A stretch of 64,000 bases of DNA from Torpedo marmorata (taxonomy: Eukaryota). Below the pieces are notes generated by a model. The model saw only the letters and a list, made by a program, of their open reading frames with translations, did not search any database and had not been told where the DNA came from. Numbering within the stretch: the first letter of the stretch is position 1; each line of letters begins with the position of its first letter. Where the stretch lies: the NCBI GenBank assembly GCA_977017645.1, contig OZ360246.1:9610001-9674000 (forward strand), in the 5' to 3' direction. Position numbers and translations under genes: made by a program. Below are positions 3,341 to 63,367 of this stretch, one piece after another.

Positions 3341-3640
3341 ACGATAGTGGTGTCATCTGCAAATCACAGTCGTGAGTGTATCGGGACGATAGTAAGGCCT
3401 TGTGGGGCACTGATGTTTAGGGTTAATGTGGAGCAGGTCTTGCCACCATCCTCACCACTTGCAGTCCACAGGTCAAGAAGTCAAGGTTCCAGTTGCAGAA
3501 GGTTGTTGATAACTACATTTCAGAGTTTTGGGATGAGTTTGTTTAGGACTATGGTGTTGACGGCAGAACTGTAGTCCGCAATGGGAGCCGGACCCGTTGT
3601 CCAGATAATCCAGGGTAGAGTGCAGGGCCAGGGAGTTGTT
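3340..3640 (-). mobile_element. Degenerate Rex/Babar-like LINE, RT part
   Basis: Reverse complement encodes FADDTTI and LALHSTLDYLDN; separated from its 3' part by the Penelope insertion. Confidence 0.65.
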
Positions 3641-4321: not shown

Positions 4322-5452
4322 CCGTATATTTTGGCGTATAAGTCGAGTCTTGAAACCCTCAAAAATCTCTCAAAAAACGGTGGTCGACTTATACGCCGGA
4401 TATATTTTTGAGACCTTAAAATCAGCTCAAAAACCGCTCCACGCTGATTCGGCGTATGTCGACCCATGAAAAACAGATTTGGCGTATAGGTCGACCCTGG
4501 AAGCACCTCCCCACCACCGGTGCCGCCGCTCCCCAACACCTCCCCACCGCCGGGCACCGCCATAAACCACCCAGACGTTCTACAATTGTAGAGCCCGAGG
4601 TCCCCGCTCCTACCTGGGAGCCTGAGGTCGCAGCTCCTGCCCGGTAAGCCGAGGCTCCTGGCCGGTAGGGTGAGGTTCCCGCTCCTGCCACGTAGTCCGA
4701 GTCCGTTCCCGCTTCTGCTGAGGAGAACGAGGTCGCCGCTCCTGCCCGGGAGAACAAGGTCGCCACTCCTGCCCGGGAGAACGAGGTCCCCGCTCCTGCC
4801 CGGGAGAACGAGGTCGCCGCTCCTGCCCGGGAGAACGAGGTCGCCGCTCCTGCCCTGGAGAACGAGGTCCCCGCTCCTGCCCAGGAGAACGAGGTCGCCA
4901 CTCCTGCCCGGGAGAACGAGGTCGCCGCTCCTGCCCAGGAGAACGAGGTCGCCGCACCTGCCCGGGAGAACGAGGTCGCCACTCCTGCCCGGGAGAACGA
5001 GGTCGCCGCTCCTGCCCAGGAGAACGAGGTCGCCACTCCTGCCCGGGAGCCGACACATAACCGTGGTTCCTGCACCGAGCACACTTGGGCAGCGAGGCGA
5101 CTTCTTCGATGCGGATAGCACCGCACCCGATGTGGAGAATGGAGTCGCCAGTCACCGACTCTGGCTGCAGCCGAAGCTGAAGACTTGGACCCAGCTCCGT
5201 TTGGCATCTTCCCGGCCAGAAGCAAAGGTTTTTTTTACTGTTTTTTTTTTTTTTACTTACTTGCTTAATTTACAGCTTTGTTACTTGGCAATTGGGGTGT
5301 TGTAACAAATTTTGGGTTGTTGCTGGGAGGCCCGGACAGCCCGAAAATTGGGGTTCGACTTATACACCGGATATACAATAAAACCATTAAAATGAGGCTG
5401 AAAAAGGGGGGTCGACTTATCCGCGAGTCGACTTATACGCCGAAATATATGG
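4322..5452. mobile_element. Non-autonomous TcMar (Tc2/pogo-like) DNA transposon
   Basis: 25-bp TIRs CCGTATATTTTGGCGTATAAGTCGA / TCGACTTATACGCCGAAATATATGG (2 mismatches); TA on both sides; internal subterminal GTCGACTTATAC repeats. Confidence 0.88.
4722..5049. repeat. 27-bp GC-rich minisatellite (about 12 copies, plus degenerate copies from about 4595)
   Basis: Unit GGAGAACGAGGTCGCCGCTCCTGCCCG; gives 9-residue periodicity in the ORF track. Confidence 0.95.
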
Positions 5453-11408: not shown

Positions 11409-11516
<108 letters not shown>

Positions 11517-14845: not shown

Positions 14846-14908
14846 ATTTTGACTTCAAGGCCATGTGACCTTTTTGCTGATTCCTATGGAGTGTTCTCAC
14901 CCAAAAAG
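14846..14908 (+). CDS. KIF1B: Candidate alternative cassette exon of KIF1B (ILTSRPCDLFADSYGVFSPKK)
   Basis: Pyrimidine tract + attag acceptor; 63 nt stop-free in phase 0-0; AAG|gtcggt donor; last 7 codons encode GVFSPKK, as in the upstream exon, with three synonymous differences. Confidence 0.65.
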
Positions 14909-25737: not shown

Positions 25738-28700
25738 TAGATTTTTGCAGTTGCTATTAACTGCAAAAATGGGAACAAATTGGGGATGTGATTAGATATC
25801 TGGCTTCTGGTATTTAGAAGCATTTAAACTCCAATCCTTGCTGATGGATGGAATTACTCTCCTGTATGCCCTGCCTTTGGGAAATTTTCATGGATCCACA
25901 GCAGAAATCTGTGCATTACAGTCTCTCCAGGAAAGGCCGAAGAACACGGTGCCTCCAGAGAGAATGCATGTCACTGAAAGTGCATGCCTCAAACGGAAAC
26001 TTTTCCTTGGTCCTAATGTTCCTCTTCCTCACAGCTATTTAACAAAACACAAAATATTTGAATTTCCCCTCGACTAAACAGGCTTGTAAAATGGTCTCTG
26101 GTTTGATCTGCCAACCCACACCAGCTGGCTTCCAGTACTGATTGTACGAGTTCCATACCTGGGCTGTGGTGAGCGCAGGGATGAAATTGGCCAGATGTCA
26201 GCTCCCTGATTACTATCCCTGACTGATTCAAATGTTTTGATTTGCCTGTTTGATAAATGTAGGAATCTGTCCCACCTTGCTTCAATGCTGTGCCAATATG
26301 AGACAGGAAATGTCCATTTGTATGAAACCAAAGGCCATCAAGCCAAATGCTGGGCAACATACTATCCCCTCTACATGTTTTTAAAATCTAGATGAAAGAC
26401 AGCACTATTGGTGATAATCCCTTCAGTTATTGATGCAAATTCAGACTTCAACCAACACAGTTAGAAAACCATAGATTTAATCATAGTGAACTGCAAAATG
26501 AGTAACTGTTTAAATAATTGGCCCGATGTCATATGCTTATCTAATGAAAAGTCATCACTGCCAAATCTATATGCTGCAAAATGCGTACATTTATAAATAT
26601 AAGTTTTGATTCATTGCTAGAGAGAGGGTTACTGGGAACGCGTTGTGAGAATTATTCTGCCTTTTGTTCCCTGCTTTCAACAGTACTGCAAAGGTCACTG
26701 GCATTTTCTAAACTGGACAAAAAAAATCAGTACATATTTTTCAAAGCATCTTGAGCACAGAGTTCATTCTGCTGTGCCCAATGGCCCTTGTAAAGCAAGT
26801 GGGGAAGGAGAGAGAACTGTAGTGTTCAGTTATGTTTTCAGTTAAAACTTTTGGTTCAGTGGTTCTTCCTATATATTAAAAAAACTATTTGAGGAAAATT
26901 AAGCATAAAATTAACTTTGATTTTAGTTGAAGTGTCAATGTTAAGTGAATAGCTCTGGCAAAGAGACACAGAACCACATAATATGAAGACAATAAATAAA
27001 AATGTTTAAACTTATGTGAATTTCTAAAGTCCCATATTATTGGCGCATTGCTATTCTTATTCTGCTTAGCTTTGCTACTGGGTTATATTGGTGAGAGTGT
27101 TCATATGTTGAAAAGAATTAAATGTTGCTGAACATTCTTTTCGTTAGTTTAATAAGATAGGCTAATGTGATTTCCTCAAATTCTAGTACTCATGTAAATG
27201 ATACAAGTTTCAATGGAGGGCACTTTGAATGCAGTTTCTGTGTGCTAACTGGATTAGCTTGCAAGCCTTAAAGATAATTCTGACTTCAAGGTTGAACAAC
27301 AAAATAGGTTCAATTGTTGTTCAGTTACAATATTTGATGAAGTTTAATTGATCAACTAATTTAGTTCTTTAGTAAGTGAAATTTTTTTAAAATGTAAGCA
27401 ATAATAACTTTTACAAAGTCTGCCAACATCTGAATTTTAAAATAAAACACTGAGGAACATCCAAATTTCGAATTTAAATGCTCTGACATTTTTTAATGTT
27501 TAAAATAGTGTCGACAAGCTTTTGAATATTCTAGTGATTTTTATCTTGCCCGTTTCACCTGAATGGGTTTTAGGAGAGCAGTGTACTGATGCCTGATGAC
27601 TTGTTTCAGTAAATTAATATTCTGGATGGTTTGAATTTATGATGTTAATTGTGAATTATTATGCCTAACATTCATAAATTGTTAGTGGTTTATATAGACT
27701 TGATCTTTTCCTTCCTACAATGTGAGAGCTGGTAGAATCTCATTCTTGCATCAACTCAAATCCTAAATAATTAAAATTAAACACACACAACCAATTTTGG
27801 AAAATCTCAGTTTTAGAATATTACTGGATTGAGGCATTACAAGTAATCTCCCAAAATTTCTGTCAAATTTCGGTCTGTGCAGTTTTCATGAAAATCAGTT
27901 ATTCACTCAGATAGTTACTGTTTTGAAATAGTGCCAATTGTTTCAAGGAGTGACGTAAAACAATGTTGGTCATTGGATCCCAAACCATTCTTTCTTATTC
28001 CCTTTGCCACAAGGATGAGAAGCTACTTAATAAACTTATCTTTTCTTTCTTTTAGTAACCAGACAAGTATTGGCTGCCCTGGTTAACTGCATCTGTATGT
28101 GCACCTGCATACTAACCCATGTTAACTACATGCATTTGACTTCCACACCACACTTTTGTATCTTGACATTAAAATGGAGATCGCAAAGAGACTATCACTT
28201 TTTTTGCATGTTTGAAGCATGTCTCGGGTGCAGCTTTAAAATTCAGAAAGGTGGGAAAATTTAATTTGTCTGAATAAATTGTTAAGGGAATTTTGTATAT
28301 CATGCAATTAAAAGGTGAAATTTAGTTTTTTGTTTTCCCTTTTATAACATTTTTTTGTCAAACCTAAACTTCTGCAGAATTGTGGTGCAAAATGTATTTA
28401 AAAAATCTCATTTGTTTCTGCAAATATTTGTACATGTCTAACACATGGTAAGGCCCACCCACAGTGCAACTGTAAAAAGTGCCTCAAAAGTGGCAGAGAT
28501 AGGTAACTCCGTACTGTGGCATTTCAAATGGGGATACTGCTCCAATAGTGCAGATTGCAGCACCTGGCTGAGTTAAAAAAATATTTGCAAAAACATTTTG
28601 CTGCATTGAGAATTCTGGACCATAATTCTGTGTTTGATTTTTGTGCCAAAAGCTTTCAGCATGTTCACCTAACTCCATCATAGTTTTCCCATTCCCTTCC

Positions 28701-28819
28701 CTCCCGCCCCCGCCCCATGTTTTCTTCATAACTTTAGTTCTTTTGTTTACATTCAATTTGAATTTTGGGTTTAATTTTAATTTTGGTTGTTTTGGGGCAT
28801 TTTGGTTTTTTTTTTAAAG

Positions 28820-30268
28820 GATGCAGACTCTGATAGTGGGGATGACTCAGACAAGAGATCTTGTGAAGAGAGTTGGCGATTGATAACCTCCCTGCGAGAA
28901 AAGCTGCCCCCCAGCAAGCTGCAAACCATTGTAAAAAAGTGTGGCCTGCCCAGCAGTGGGAAAAAACACGAACAGATCAAGGTTTACCAGATTCCCAAGA
29001 GACGTAAAATTACCAAAGATCCCAAATGGGTGACGTTCTCAGACCTTAAGATCCAGGCCGTGAAGGAGATTTGTTATGAGGTGGCTTTGAATGATTTCAG
29101 GCACTCTAGGCAGGAGATTGAGGCACTGGCGATTGTTAAAATGAAAGAGCTCTGTGCTGCCTATGGGAAGAAGGATCCCAATGAGAGAGAATCTTGGCGA
29201 GCTGTTGCAAGGGATGTGTGGGATACAGTGGGTGTTGGAGAGGAGCGAATTGAAGACATCGCTTCCACTGTGAAAACTCCCAGTGACGTGGACGTCCTCA
29301 AGTGCCATGTGGACAAATTGGAAAATATATTGCAAGAGGTGAAGAAGCAGAACAACACAAAGGAAGAAGAGATTAAGATTCTGCGAAACAAAATGTTGCA
29401 GATGGAGAAAGTTTTGCCACTGATGGATGCGCAAGACCAGCCTGGGAAATCCACCTCCCGGGAGAAATGCGGGGAGAATGAAGATACGAAGCACAAAAGC
29501 GAGCAGAGCATCGGTGATCCCAGAGACGAGGATCAACTGAGCAAGGAAGAACGCGTCTCAAAGCTAATGAACGAGGATCCGGAATTCCGGCGTGGCCGTT
29601 TGCGATGGATGCGGCTGGAGCAGATCCGATTTAAGAATCTTCAGCAGCAGGAGATCACGAAGCAGCTGAGGAGGCAGGGAGCGCCGCACAGGTTCATCCC
29701 ACCCGAAGACCGCAAGCTGCGGTTTCCCTTCAAAAGTAACCCCAGCCACAGAAACTCCTGGAGCCCCGGGACCCACATCATCATCACTGACAAGGAGGCC
29801 GTGGAGTTTGTGGTTGAAAAGGATTCGAAGGAAGGGAGTGACACCGAGGAAGTTGCGAGCGAAAAGAAAGAGCATGACCTGCCTCAGCCGTGGCGCCAGT
29901 ACGGGTCGGGCAGAGGGTACAACCAAGGCCAACGCAGCCAGCAGTACCAGAGGAATGAGCAACAAGCCCGCTGGCGCAGCAACTCGTTTAACAATGGACA
30001 GCACCGTGGCTTGCGTCGACATGCATCGAACTCGACCGAATCATTACCATCATCTGATTGCTGCCGAACAACAGAATCTTCCATGCACCTTCAGCGACGC
30101 ATCCATCAACAGCCTTGCCACTATAATGGCGGCTCCTCAGAAAATTGTTTCCACGCAGTTGAATACTTGAGAACTGACAGACCATACCACCACCATTTCA
30201 CTCCCCCTCCGCGAATGCGCCGACAATACTCGGAGCCAAATCTAAAATCACGGGAAACAACTGTGTAG
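28820..30268 (+). CDS. KIF1B: KIF1B-alpha-specific terminal coding exon
   Basis: T-tract + aaag|GAT; 482 codons DADSDSGDDSDKRSCEESWRLITSLREKLPPSKL...RMRRQYSEPNLKSRETTV*; C-terminal class I PDZ-binding motif ETTV typical of KIF1B-alpha. Confidence 0.96.
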   Translation, partial: DADSDSGDDSDKRSCEESWRLITSLREKLPPSKLQTIVKKCGLPSSGKKHEQIKVYQIPKRRKITKDPKWVTFSDLKIQAVKEICYEVALNDFRHSRQEIEALAIVKMKELCAAYGKKDPNERESWRAVARDVWDTVGVGEERIEDIASTVKTPSDVDVLKCHVDKLENILQEVKKQNNTKEEEIKILRNKMLQMEKVLPLMDAQDQPGKSTSREKCGENEDTKHKSEQSIGDPRDEDQLSKEERVSKLMNEDPEFRRGRLRWMRLEQIRFKNLQQQEITKQLRRQGAPHRFIPPEDRKLRFPFKSNPSHRNSWSPGTHIIITDKEAVEFVVEKDSKEGSDTEEVASEKKEHDLPQPWRQYGSGRGYNQGQRSQQYQRNEQQARWRSNSFNNGQHRGLRRHASNSTESLPSSDCCRTTESSMHLQRRIHQQPCHYNGGSSENCFHAVEYLRTDRPYHHHFTPPPRMRRQYSEPNLKSRETTV

Positions 30269-48062: not shown

Positions 48063-48635
48063 NNNNNNNNNNNNNNNNNNNNNNNNNNNNNNNNNNNNNN
48101 NNNNNNNNNNNNNNNNNNNNNNNNNNNNNNNNNNNNNNNNNNNNNNNNNNNNNNNNNNNNNNNNNNNNNNNNNNNNNNNNNNNNNNNNNNNNNNNNNNNN
48201 NNNNNNNNNNNNNNNNNNNNNNNNNNNNNNNNNNNNNNNNNNNNNNNNNNNNNNNNNNNNNNNNNNNNNNNNNNNNNNNNNNNNNNNNNNNNNNNNNNNN
48301 NNNNNNNNNNNNNNNNNNNNNNNNNNNNNNNNNNNNNNNNNNNNNNNNNNNNNNNNNNNNNNNNNNNNNNNNNNNNNNNNNNNNNNNNNNNNNNNNNNNN
48401 NNNNNNNNNNNNNNNNNNNNNNNNNNNNNNNNNNNNNNNNNNNNNNNNNNNNNNNNNNNNNNNNNNNNNNNNNNNNNNNNNNNNNNNNNNNNNNNNNNNN
48501 NNNNNNNNNNNNNNNNNNNNNNNNNNNNNNNNNNNNNNNNNNNNNNNNNNNNNNNNNNNNNNNNNNNNNNNNNNNNNNNNNNNNNNNNNNNNNNNNNNNN
48601 NNNNNNNNNNNNNNNNNNNNNNNNNNNNNNNNNNN
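48063..48635. other. Assembly gap or masked sequence (N run)
   Basis: Run of n. Confidence 0.99.
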
Positions 48636-48710: not shown

Positions 48711-49453
48711 NNNNNNNNNNNNNNNNNNNNNNNNNNNNNNNNNNNNNNNNNNNNNNNNNNNNNNNNNNNNNNNNNNNNNNNNNNNNNNNNNNNNNNNNNN
48801 NNNNNNNNNNNNNNNNNNNNNNNNNNNNNNNNNNNNNNNNNNNNNNNNNNNNNNNNNNNNNNNNNNNNNNNNNNNNNNNNNNNNNNNNNNNNNNNNNNNN
48901 NNNNNNNNNNNNNNNNNNNNNNNNNNNNNNNNNNNNNNNNNNNNNNNNNNNNNNNNNNNNNNNNNNNNNNNNNNNNNNNNNNNNNNNNNNNNNNNNNNNN
49001 NNNNNNNNNNNNNNNNNNNNNNNNNNNNNNNNNNNNNNNNNNNNNNNNNNNNNNNNNNNNNNNNNNNNNNNNNNNNNNNNNNNNNNNNNNNNNNNNNNNN
49101 NNNNNNNNNNNNNNNNNNNNNNNNNNNNNNNNNNNNNNNNNNNNNNNNNNNNNNNNNNNNNNNNNNNNNNNNNNNNNNNNNNNNNNNNNNNNNNNNNNNN
49201 NNNNNNNNNNNNNNNNNNNNNNNNNNNNNNNNNNNNNNNNNNNNNNNNNNNNNNNNNNNNNNNNNNNNNNNNNNNNNNNNNNNNNNNNNNNNNNNNNNNN
49301 NNNNNNNNNNNNNNNNNNNNNNNNNNNNNNNNNNNNNNNNNNNNNNNNNNNNNNNNNNNNNNNNNNNNNNNNNNNNNNNNNNNNNNNNNNNNNNNNNNNN
49401 NNNNNNNNNNNNNNNNNNNNNNNNNNNNNNNNNNNNNNNNNNNNNNNNNNNNN
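48711..49453. other. Assembly gap or masked sequence (N run)
   Basis: Run of n. Confidence 0.99.
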
Positions 49454-50564: not shown

Positions 50565-50702
50565 GCAACGGTTGGAACTGATGCGTGAGATGTACGATCG
50601 TGCTGGCGAAATGGCTTCCAACACACAAGAGGAGAGTGAGGGCATCATGACAGGCAGCGACCCGTTCTATGACCGCTTCCATTGGTTTAAACTCGTGGGA
50701 AG
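50565..50702 (+). CDS. KIF1B: KIF1B-beta exon
   Basis: gtgcag|GCAA; [45 protein letters not shown]; AG|gtactt; 138 nt. Confidence 0.97.
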
Positions 50703-51644: not shown

Positions 51645-52481
51645 TTATGAATGCATGTAATTTTTTGACTAGGACAACTATTATAAGTCATCAGGGAGGC
51701 AATGGTTAACTTTAGGTGATAGCATATTTTGTAGTTTGGTCTTCATCTTTAACTCCCTCTGGGGCTCAGGATCCTGGGAAAGGTTGACAGGAGGCACCTC
51801 TCGCTGTAAAATCTACAGCTGTGGGATACAGTCTTGGGGTTTAAGATGGCCTGCCGAGTTGAGATGAAACATGTCTTTATTCAAAGAGCTGCAAATGCTC
51901 CGCGATGGGTCTTGGGCTGAGAATGATGGAATTTTTTTGCACATCTGATGGAATTGATGTACTAGGGCCGGGTGGGAGAGCAGCTAGAGACAGCGTAGCG
52001 ACTCTCGCTGTGCATCCAAGTTTTGCTTGCGTTCCTCGAACAAAATTGGCCAGTTTTGCAAGGGCTTGGCAATGAAATCGACCCATCGCTGGGATCACTG
52101 ATGGAGATTAATAGCAGTTACACAGGGATTGTAAATGAACAAAGGAGAAACTTGATGTGGACAGACTGATGCTCCTATGTTGTACCAGAAATGTTTACAG
52201 AGGGTGAACTTTCCTTCCCTGAAATAAAGATTAACTCTTGTTTTCTCTTAAATTGTACACTGCCCCTGCTCAGCATGTTTCTGCCCGTGTCCGGGAAGGC
52301 CAGTTATCATATTAACCTCACCGTGATGACAAACTGACCATCAAAGGCCAAGGATGTTTGGCTCCATGTTACTAATTAATCACACTGATCCATAGTTTCA
52401 TTCCTAAATGCAAGGCTCACACCAAATGTTTGCAGTTTTTCTTTCTCATCTCATCCTTCCTGAATCCACTGCTCCTGCCAG

Positions 52482-52493
52482 TGAAGCGAGCAG
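52482..52493 (+). CDS. KIF1B: Candidate 12-nt in-frame microexon of KIF1B-beta
   Basis: Long pyrimidine tract ending tgctcctgccag, then TGAAGCGAGCAG, then consensus donor gtaagt; phase 2-2 matches the flanking exons and adds S-E-A-S. Confidence 0.6.
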
Positions 52494-53616
52494 GTAAGTG
52501 GGAGTACCTATTTGTTTGAGGTTTTCCTCCATTGTACACCACCCTGATTTGGCAAAATATATATATATTTGACTTGAATTATTGCAGAAGGAGGCCATTC
52601 AGTCCATTTGATCCATGCTGGCTCCCAGTAGAGCAATCCCATCAATCCCATTCTCCCTCTCTTGTTATGTCCACTTCCCATCACTCCCCTTTGATTATTT
52701 TGGTGCTTATCTACATGGAAGGCTAAGTTACTATGGCCAATTAATGATAATGAAAATGTTTATTGTCATATATGTTTTACAGTGTAGATATGCATCGAAA
52801 TTCTTACTTACCAAATAACACGTGGTGTCGGAGGAACTGGACTATGTGGGAGTGGGGGCACACTGCCACAAATAGCATCAGGGGTCAGGATTGAACCAAG
52901 GTCACTGTAACTATAGAGGAGCAGCGGTAACCTCTGTGCCACCGTGTCATCCATCGTCGCTGAATCCTCGAGCTCTTGACCATACTGAACGTACATTCAG
53001 ACAACATTGACCACAGAAGCTGAAGACAGCAGCTTCCCACCACCACTTCATCAAGGACATCTAAATCCTAATGTTCCAAGATGGCCTACTTTAGCTTCTG
53101 TGGTCATCTACAGGTGCTCCACACCTGGGCCCAGTGCCTCGAGGTTACCTGCGCCCTGTGGGATTGAAGCCACCTCAGAGTAGACAGCAGATGAGGTGGC
53201 CATATCTGGTTGAAGCTCACCTCAAAGGTCTTGGACTTTGATCTGCCAAGAGAGAACCCCCTGGCTTCCTCTAGTGGGGACTGCTCACCCAACCAGAGAA
53301 TAAATGCTGGCCTCCCAGTGGCAGCCACATCCCGCAAATTAATTAAAACTAAATAGAACCAGAGTTGTTACAGTACCAACAGAGGGCCATTTAGCCCATT
53401 GAGACCATGTTGGTTCCTTGTAGAGTAAACTATTGTGAGCTGTTACGCTACTCCCTTCCCTGTAATCCTGCAAGTTATTTTTCCCAAAGGTGTTTATTGT
53501 TTCCTTTTGGAAAGTCCTAATTGACTGAGAGTTCTGGATCATAGCTGTCCTGGATTTTTTTTTTAAATCCTAAATATCTTTCCATTTTCTTCACTCACCG
53601 TTTTAAAATCAAGTCT

Positions 53617-54420: not shown

Positions 54421-54794
54421 CAGTGGTTTTCAAACTGCCCCCCTAAACTCACATTCTACCTTAAGCAATCTCTATGCCATAAGTGCTCTGTGATTAGTAA
54501 GGGATTGCCTAAGGTAGTATGTGATTGGGAAAAAAAGGTTGAGAACCACTGCTCTCGACCCAATTGTTACTGAAATATTTTGCTTGAGAAAAATTGTCTT
54601 TGGCCCATTTCCTTTGGAGTTATGAAACCGTGCACATAACGAGTCAATTAGGTTCGATTAAAACAGTGGTTTTCAAACTTTTTCTTTCCACTCACATACC
54701 ACCTTATGCAATCCCTTACTAATCACAGAGCACTTATGGCATAGGGATTGCTTAAGGTGGAATGTGAGTGTAGGGGGCAGTTTGAAAACTACTG
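54421..54794. mobile_element. Composite hAT-type MITE made of two inverted 131-bp units
   Basis: Outer TIRs CAGTGGTTTTCAAACTGCCCC / GGGGCAGTTTGAAAACTACTG; 8-bp TSD CTCTATGT (54413-54420, 54795-54802). Confidence 0.9.
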
Positions 54795-55671: not shown

Positions 55672-57275
55672 TATTTTCTTGGATACAATACCTGTACGGA
55701 ATGCAATCTCTTGATGGGTATTGACCAAAACTTTCACGTCTGAAATGTAATGTAATCTAAAATGCCTTTCAACATACTGAGATAAAATGACCAATGAAAT
55801 GGAAAAACTGATTGGATTTTCTCCCCCCGTTTTAGGATTAGTTTAGGATCAACGTTCAATGGTTTGTGTTCCTGAACTCTCAAGTTCCTTGGCTTTGTCA
55901 GTTGTTTTTATTGTCTGATCATTTAGAAAATATTGTGCCTTTCTTAGACTATCCTCACAACCCACTCTGATGTGAATTTGTCTCTTTGTAACCCCGATCT
56001 GTAGCCAAATCTCTCCAAAGCTCAGCACATCCCTATTTTTCAAACTGGATATGTGCTTTCACTTACTTCATCCCTCCTGTTCTGCTTGTTTGTGGACAGA
56101 GCCTGTAGTGAAGTAGCCCTCCCCATCCCACTCGTGTGCCCTTAAGGTATCCTCCCAACTCTTTTTGGCAGCCCAGTGATGCTGTGAGGGACTCCTGCAT
56201 TGTTGAAGGTGACTTTTCTCTCATGAGCTATTAAACAAATGTGGTGCTCTCCGATGTGCATAAAAGATTTTGCAATGCCATTTTGAACACCAGTTAATTT
56301 ATCCCCAGTTTCCCGCCCAGTTATCTCTGCATTGACAACCCTAAAGCAGATGGTTGATTTTGCCATTGTCACGTCACTTGATGTGAAAGATTGCAGTGAG
56401 CAAATTGGATGCAGTGTATCCTGACTACAACATTGTCTGCTCTTTACGTGCATCATTTATTCGCTGTAAAGTGCATCGGGATGTCCTGCATTCATGAAAG
56501 ATGACATAAAAATTAAGTTCTTCCAATTTGTTTTTTCTTTGTAGTTTTCATTGCTGCATGTTGCTCCCAAGGTAACTTAAAATTGTTTGTCATTTCAGTG
56601 CTCCTGCACTGTTGTAAGCAAGGATATTGCTCTGACAAAGCTGGTGCCAAGTTCTCTAGGATACGACCCCCTTCTTCCCACACCTGTTTTCCAGCTGCAT
56701 TTTCTTTCCCGATCTGTTTATTCCTGTGTCATTCAGTATCTCGGTCCTGGACCTAATTTTATATCCTGCTTTTGAAATGCGTCCAGTTCCTAACATTCCC
56801 ACATTAGGGACACACCCTTTTATTCCCTTTTGGATCTGACATCGATCTCCACTCTTTCCAAGATTCCATTCAGCCAGAGTGTGATCACATTTCTGGCAAC
56901 GTCGATCATAATTGCAGAGAATTGCAGTTGTGACAAAGGGTCATCGATCTGAAACATTAACTCTGTTTTCCATTCCACAGATGCGGCCTGACCTGAGAAT
57001 TTCCATAGTTTTCTATCTTAATTGCAGAGAATACGCTGGTCCATTGAATTATGAAATCTGTAACTGCAGCTTTGCTCTTTATCTCTTTCTGTTTGGATCC
57101 TTGTGTTACAGTTTAGGGCTGCAATTGCACATTTGATGAAAATGATCACTTCAAAAGTAATCCAGTGATCCTAAGTGCAGTCAAATAATTTATAAAGCCT
57201 GTTACAAAATGCTGGTAAATCGCTGGAAATTTGAGTCATTTGAGAGAAGCAATTATCTTTTAAAACCACAAACTA

Positions 57276-57682: not shown

Positions 57683-57931
57683 TTCCCCAATTTTCCACGG
57701 CTGTGTGAACGAGCACCTTGCTGATCGCACCCCCTCGCCCACCTTCTCCACAGCTGATTCTGACATCACTGAGCTTGCTGATGAGCAGCAAGACGAGATT
57801 GAGGATCTGGATGATGAAGCCTTTGTGGACGATACTAGCTCAGATCTGGGCAACGAAGAGGGCTCTGACATCTTCGGCGATGGGCAGGATCCGTTTTATG
57901 ACCGGTCCCCATGGTTCATTTTGGTGGGAAG
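57683..57931 (+). CDS. KIF1B: KIF1B-beta symmetric (skippable) exon, acidic insert
   Basis: ctccag|TTCC; SPIFHGCVNEHLADRTPSPTFSTADSDITELADEQQDEIEDLDDEAFVDD...DPFYDRSPWFILVG; AG|gttggt; 249 nt, phase 2-2. Confidence 0.96.

Positions 57932-63163: not shown

Positions 63164-63367
<204 letters not shown>

Follow-up and report, generated by a model that had tools for sequence, protein, structure and literature searches.

A candidate 12-nt neural microexon in the beta-specific tail of KIF1B in the electric ray Torpedo marmorata

Results and Discussion

A 12-nt segment within an intron of the Torpedo marmorata KIF1B gene has a sequence layout resembling that of neural microexons, and we tentatively interpret it as a real, lineage-restricted neural cassette exon of KIF1B-beta, an interpretation to which we give somewhat less than an even chance. 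The layout of the segment, its reading phase, its rarity within the 64,000-nt stretch of DNA that was analyzed (the window) and its position relative to a modeled protein strand are the observations behind this interpretation, and from them we infer its splicing, its neural specificity, its control by SRRM3/4, its coupling to a nearby 249-nt exon and its effect on the protein.

Host gene and layout of the candidate exon

Exon-by-exon mapping of the Narcine bancroftii KIF1B protein identified the forward strand of the window as exons and introns of KIF1B from the first coiled coil through the beta-specific tail, which bore out the gene call of the original prediction. The exon upstream of the candidate is highly similar, not identical, to its Narcine bancroftii counterpart (98% identity). 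The candidate is located in the intron of ~7 kb that follows the exon ending in WFKLVG, 1,779 nt past that exon and 5,189 nt before the 249-nt exon. The features on which the argument depends are as follows:

50565–50702, forward strand: KIF1B coding exon preceding the candidate (QRLELMREM...WFKLVG), ending in AG, phase 2
52436–52478, forward strand: AG-free pyrimidine tract with TGC at 52470 and 52476
52479–52481, forward strand: candidate acceptor CAG
52482–52493, forward strand: candidate 12-nt cassette exon, which would add SEAS; sequence TGAAGCGAGCAG
52494–52499, forward strand: candidate donor GTAAGT, the sole CAG/GTAAGT in the window
57683–57931, forward strand: 249-nt alternative exon, 83 aa, acidic
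63202–63320, forward strand: KIF1B coding exon starting RAFVY, inside the first MATH-domain strand

Every element of the layout originally reported (a pyrimidine tract, two UGC motifs, CAG, 12 nt and GTAAGT) was present at its expected place. The 45 nt preceding the acceptor CAG are 78% C or T, the nearest AG upstream of that acceptor is 46 nt off, and the two TGC motifs start at −12 and −6 relative to it. In the 62.7 kb of called sequence, CAGGTAAGT was found once on the forward strand (at 52491) and not at all on the reverse strand, and the candidate flank has no second copy anywhere else in the window. There was no TCTCTC repeat in 52201–52800. The region from branch point to AG was almost unpaired in the centroid structure, yet its z-score relative to shuffled sequences was +1.0. 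The claim of a 2-2 phase without a stop also held, given that the upstream exon ends in phase 2 and the candidate reads SEAS in frame, stop-free, into either of the downstream exons (beginning SSPIF or RAFVY).

Several other features were observed in the window. A GC-rich array with a period of ~27 nt and several open frames is present at 4592–5150. The end of the exon at 11426–11501 recurs in a short exon-like segment at 14846–14908, which ends in GVFSPKK. Chiloscyllium and Scyliorhinus have an annotated 41-aa insert whose second half this segment matches and whose first half was not located. The matching insert was found in none of the eight Narcine isoforms examined, and two copies of GVFSPKK occurred in 16 of the 413 proteins listed, including those of Crotalus and Ascaphus. 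Within a beta-form intron of 17 kb lies a long open frame at 28781–30268 (495 aa, stop to stop) that appears to be the terminal exon of KIF1B-alpha. Assembly gaps (runs of N) at 48063–48635 and 48711–49453 fall in the intron that precedes the upstream exon, and an inverted pair at 54421–54794 (~102 nt, 91% complementarity, 135 nt spacing), 2 kb downstream of the candidate, is probably a short mobile element.

Chance expectation for the layout

Using thresholds that were set after the candidate had been seen and were fitted to it, the strict layout had one match on the sense strand of the window (the candidate), none on the antisense strand and none in 200 dinucleotide shuffles. When the donor was relaxed the candidate was still the sole sense match and the shuffles gave 5/200, and under loose criteria there were six sense matches relative to a shuffle mean of 2.3. 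Since shuffling destroys natural pyrimidine tracts, a second estimate was also made as the product of the donor density and the number of acceptor-like sites actually present on the sense strand (28 or 43). By this product, 0.006 strict or 0.08 relaxed in-frame layouts are expected per window, and 0.22 relaxed layouts at any length.

These values bear on an alternative in which the segment is a pseudo-exon, with the pyrimidine tract and the consensus donor lying 12 nt apart by coincidence within an intron of 7 kb, and is never, or almost never, spliced. We consider this a serious possibility even if we are inclined to doubt it. The low strict expectation, the empty strict shuffles and the absence of an antisense match argue against a pseudo-exon, as does the candidate being in frame and free of stops. 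Conversely, the relaxed expectations imply many such sites genome-wide, and the 28–43 acceptor-like sites with UGC are mostly outside known exons. Thirteen real acceptors were compared, from 13 of the ~17 exons of the window, and the candidate tract had a greater pyrimidine content than 12 of them, but UGC is only weakly specific, because a TGC within 22 nt of the acceptor was also found at seven of the 13 ordinary exons. The layout is unusual, yet by our own estimate it arises at approximately the rate expected for genuine microexons missing from the annotation of such a gene.

The loose criteria also detected weaker in-frame AG..GT segments at 3348–3371, 27070–27090, 56172–56183 and 56599–56613 (24, 21, 12 and 15 nt, respectively), a number about as chance predicts, and the two at 56 kb share the intron of the candidate. 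One more match sits inside an exon.

Annotated KIF1B proteins at the junction

To describe the junction in other species, 460 proteins were assembled from three homologue searches (best 120 each) and three cluster look-ups (for two clusters, of 27 and 35 members, 15 members of each are in the set), and 457 of these span the junction. Neither SEAS nor any other 4-residue insert was present in the 457 junction-spanning vertebrate KIF1B proteins listed, among which 393 continue directly to SSPIF, 13 skip to RAFVY and 51 have other inserts. The same was true of the 97 proteins from 14 species of cartilaginous fishes, with 93 SSPIF forms, four RAFVY forms and no SEAS. Two of the homologue searches had used insert-free queries; the third, with an insert-bearing query, was meant to offset this and had no form with that insert among its best 120 of 1903 matches. 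SEAS was likewise in none of the eight isoforms of Narcine bancroftii examined (from a numbering that reaches at least X13), for which neural-type isoforms were modeled, as judged by the 18-nt motor-domain microexon in six and the 27-nt exon in five of them.

The absence of the insert from annotated proteins is what a pseudo-exon would produce. Against this, the smallest alternative exon in 15 cartilaginous-fish isoform pairs was 18 nt, so an exon of 12 nt could escape the annotation models. As such, we regard the absence of SEAS as moderate evidence against the exon and not as a refutation of it.

Inserts of other lengths are annotated before SSPIF, with 8 aa between WFKLVG and SSPIF in squamates (29 proteins) and 12 aa in the frog Pyxicephalus (four proteins), which indicates that the junction tolerates extra residues. 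The possibility that these inserts represent an ancestral state of the microexon was rejected, since they have no likeness to SEAS and resemble a translated intron end (in the window, the intron end reads LPLTM in one frame). The resemblance suggests that they are extensions to upstream alternative acceptors in those lineages. Inserts starting with RY, RC or RK (from UniRef and partial models) were discounted as gene predictions that probably read through an intron, and they remain within the count of 457. A metagenome scan yielded 57 loci from 355 pattern matches, and the two closest loci (one transcript-like, the other with ~145 nt of intron) end short of the comparable intron position.

Branch point and alternative uses of the splice sites

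An ACTAAT motif upstream of the candidate had been pointed out in the original prediction, and a pattern match alone to the branch-point consensus yUnAy was used to pick nearer candidates:

52371–52376, forward strand: ACTAAT; three AGs separate it from the candidate acceptor, 107 nt away
52416–52454, forward strand: nearer branch-point candidates (yUnAy), with adenosines at 52419, 52448 and 52453 (−63, −34 and −29)

The motif is present as described; given its distance and the AGs at 52394, 52413 and 52434 between it and the acceptor, however, it is probably not the branch point of the 12-nt exon, for which the sites at −29, −34 and −63 are nearer.

ACTAAT would have a role if the donor were used only at low frequency, or were paired with an acceptor further upstream, so that a frameshifting cassette of 58, 79 or 98 nt directed the transcript to nonsense-mediated decay. 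In that case it would serve as branch point for the 98-nt form, as it lies ~20 nt before the AG at 52394–52395. Consistent with such a cassette, all three of these forms shift the frame, the longer in-frame forms contain stops, and none would give rise to an annotated protein. However, the tracts of the upstream acceptors are weaker (50–60% pyrimidine in 20 nt versus 70% for the acceptor of the 12-nt exon), and we judge this explanation quite unlikely.

An AG/GTAAGT downstream of a pyrimidine tract is also the pattern of a recursive splice site. The element could accordingly be a recursive or decoy site, or could produce an in-frame 3-nt exon via the internal AG (of GAG), with no 12-nt exon in the mRNA in either case. 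We think this very improbable, as there are three AGs between the tract and the site, of which the first (CAG) should be chosen, and the internal acceptors are AAG and GAG. In addition, vertebrate recursive sites are mostly found in very long introns and this intron is only 7 kb.

The 249-nt exon and the position of SEAS relative to the MATH domain

The 3' end of the 249-nt exon is a near copy of the last 14 codons of the upstream exon (DPFYDR..WF.LVG), which looks like an old internal duplication. Inclusion of the 249-nt exon therefore swaps which copy of the motif completes the first MATH-domain strand. In teleost KIF1B, 84 aa (252 nt) are present between WFKLVG and RAFVY (14 proteins), compared with 249 nt in the window, and based on length and position the 249-nt exon is probably the orthologue of the neural exon DreEX0041534/HsaEX0034477.

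The motif and the RAFVY sequence appear to belong to one continuous strand. In all 13 uninterrupted unc-104/KIF1 metagenome contigs the motif runs into an R.FVY-like sequence without insertion (these contigs come from the 57 loci; in the rest, the sequence stops or an intron lies at the junction or close to it). Two models, both weak overall, were examined. In that of one such invertebrate-type protein (mean pLDDT 56), strand 85–94 spans G89–R90 with a pLDDT of ~74–80. For a bird tail fragment that includes the 83-residue segment, strand 125–134 of the model spans the second motif copy; residues 1–122 have a pLDDT <50, the mean pLDDT is 49 and the fragment is without its upstream context. Residues 117–344 of the bird model aligned to residues 690–839 of KLP-6 in a fold search (Z 15.1, rmsd 3.3, 144 aligned), which are its MATH domain; this domain follows the MBS domain and is described as conserved in KIF1A/B (PMC9314371). 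KLP-6 was reached by the fold search only; a sequence search of solved structures matched the full isoform to motor and FHA domains and gave no useful match for a tail fragment.

Two products had been predicted, and they differ in plausibility. As the G/R position is inside the continuous beta strand and none of the 13 contigs has an insertion there, SEAS before RAFVY would be expected to split the first MATH strand, and the product KLVG-SEAS-RAFVY is unlikely to be tolerated. SEAS before SSPIF would instead sit at the start of the low-confidence acidic segment, leaving KLVG-SEAS-SSPIF as the sole plausible product according to the models. It follows that the exon, if real, should accompany the 249-nt exon.

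Interpretation as a neural microexon

Our preferred interpretation, a real microexon, is favored by the strict layout having the candidate as its sole match, by its absence from all 200 shuffles, by the expectation of 0.006–0.08 and by the presence in the host gene of a long neural exon and of a neural microexon that responds to SRRM3/4. Weighing against it are the lack of SEAS in the 457 proteins, the kif1b rows of a zebrafish table (see below), which are not of 12 nt, the fitting of the thresholds to the candidate, the very many windows covered by a genome scan, the TGC at seven of 13 ordinary exons and the missing TCTCTC. The original claim of an SRRM3/4-dependent neural microexon is partly supported: the gene, the phase and the SRRM3/4-like layout hold, and the annotated proteins speak moderately against an exon.

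If the exon is real, SRRM3/4 in neurons would bind the UGC motifs that separate the pyrimidine tract from the AG, so that an exon too short for normal exon definition could be recognized via its consensus donor. The 12-nt exon would then be joined to the neural 249-nt exon to give KLVG-SEAS-SSPIF, in which four small residues would start an acidic, probably disordered segment of 83 aa. As the first MATH strand would be completed by the second motif copy, carried by the 249-nt exon, this segment would immediately precede the MATH domain. Any effect on the motor would be expected to be small, namely a change in linker length and two extra serines. In a more specific version, which we consider unlikely, the exon arose de novo in KIF1B-beta as an electric-ray-specific neural microexon obligately coupled to the 249-nt exon, given that the candidate alone would break the first MATH strand, and would provide a serine-rich spacer of four residues beside the autoinhibitory MBS-MATH module of this motor for synaptic vesicle precursors, possibly in electromotor neurons.

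A real exon would represent a microexon missing from the annotation of a neuronal motor with relevance to disease and a recent microexon birth in cartilaginous fishes, and it predicts coupled splicing with the neighboring neural exon. Knowledge of the SRRM3/4 microexon class would be unchanged, as at most one further member would be added to it. If it is not real, it is an ordinary pseudo-exon.

Comparison with known systems

Our literature search, whose scope lay outside VastDB, subscription papers and bioRxiv supplements, had no report of this 12-nt KIF1B exon, and no paper joining "microexon" and "chondrichthyan", among the papers listed. One known exon in the same gene is the 18-nt KIF1B microexon (DreEX0041536/HsaEX0034475), which is reported as neural and SRRM3/4-responsive (PMC12626424), and annotated ray and shark proteins include its counterpart, DNAPSK. 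The candidate was ruled out as being this exon, which is conserved, encodes part of the motor domain after KVISALAEV and is upstream of the window, whereas the candidate has 12 nt and lies in the beta tail. In the zebrafish table of 708 neural exons in PMC12626424, there are two kif1b rows, of 18 and 252 nt, and none of 12 nt. The 252-nt exon (DreEX0041534; HsaEX0034477), probably the exon following the candidate, differs from it in being long and nearly SRRM3/4-independent, with reported changes of −1.6 in zebrafish and −5.7 in human, in both of which it is neural (PMC12626424). The squamate 8-aa and frog 12-aa inserts share the KIF1B junction with the candidate and differ from SEAS in sequence.

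With the SRRM3/4 neural microexons (3–27 nt) as a class, the candidate has in common its length, a frame kept without a stop, the pyrimidine tract, the UGC motifs and the strong donor. UGC between branch point and AG is described for 74–79% of such microexons (bioRxiv 10.1101/2024.09.17.613571), an extended pyrimidine tract with a branch point further upstream (median 45 versus 34 nt) in PMC12871342, and an upstream UC repeat, for which a pyrimidine tract was accepted as similar, in PMC12626420. Members of the class are as a rule conserved among jawed vertebrates, whereas the candidate has no orthologous insert among the annotated proteins listed. Many lineage-specific microexons are nonetheless reported in zebrafish, where deletions of single microexons had mostly mild effects (PMC12626424). 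The host gene of the candidate also resembles those of the class in its role in vesicle/microtubule transport (bioRxiv 10.1101/2024.09.17.613571, PMC12871342, PMC12626420, PMC12626424).
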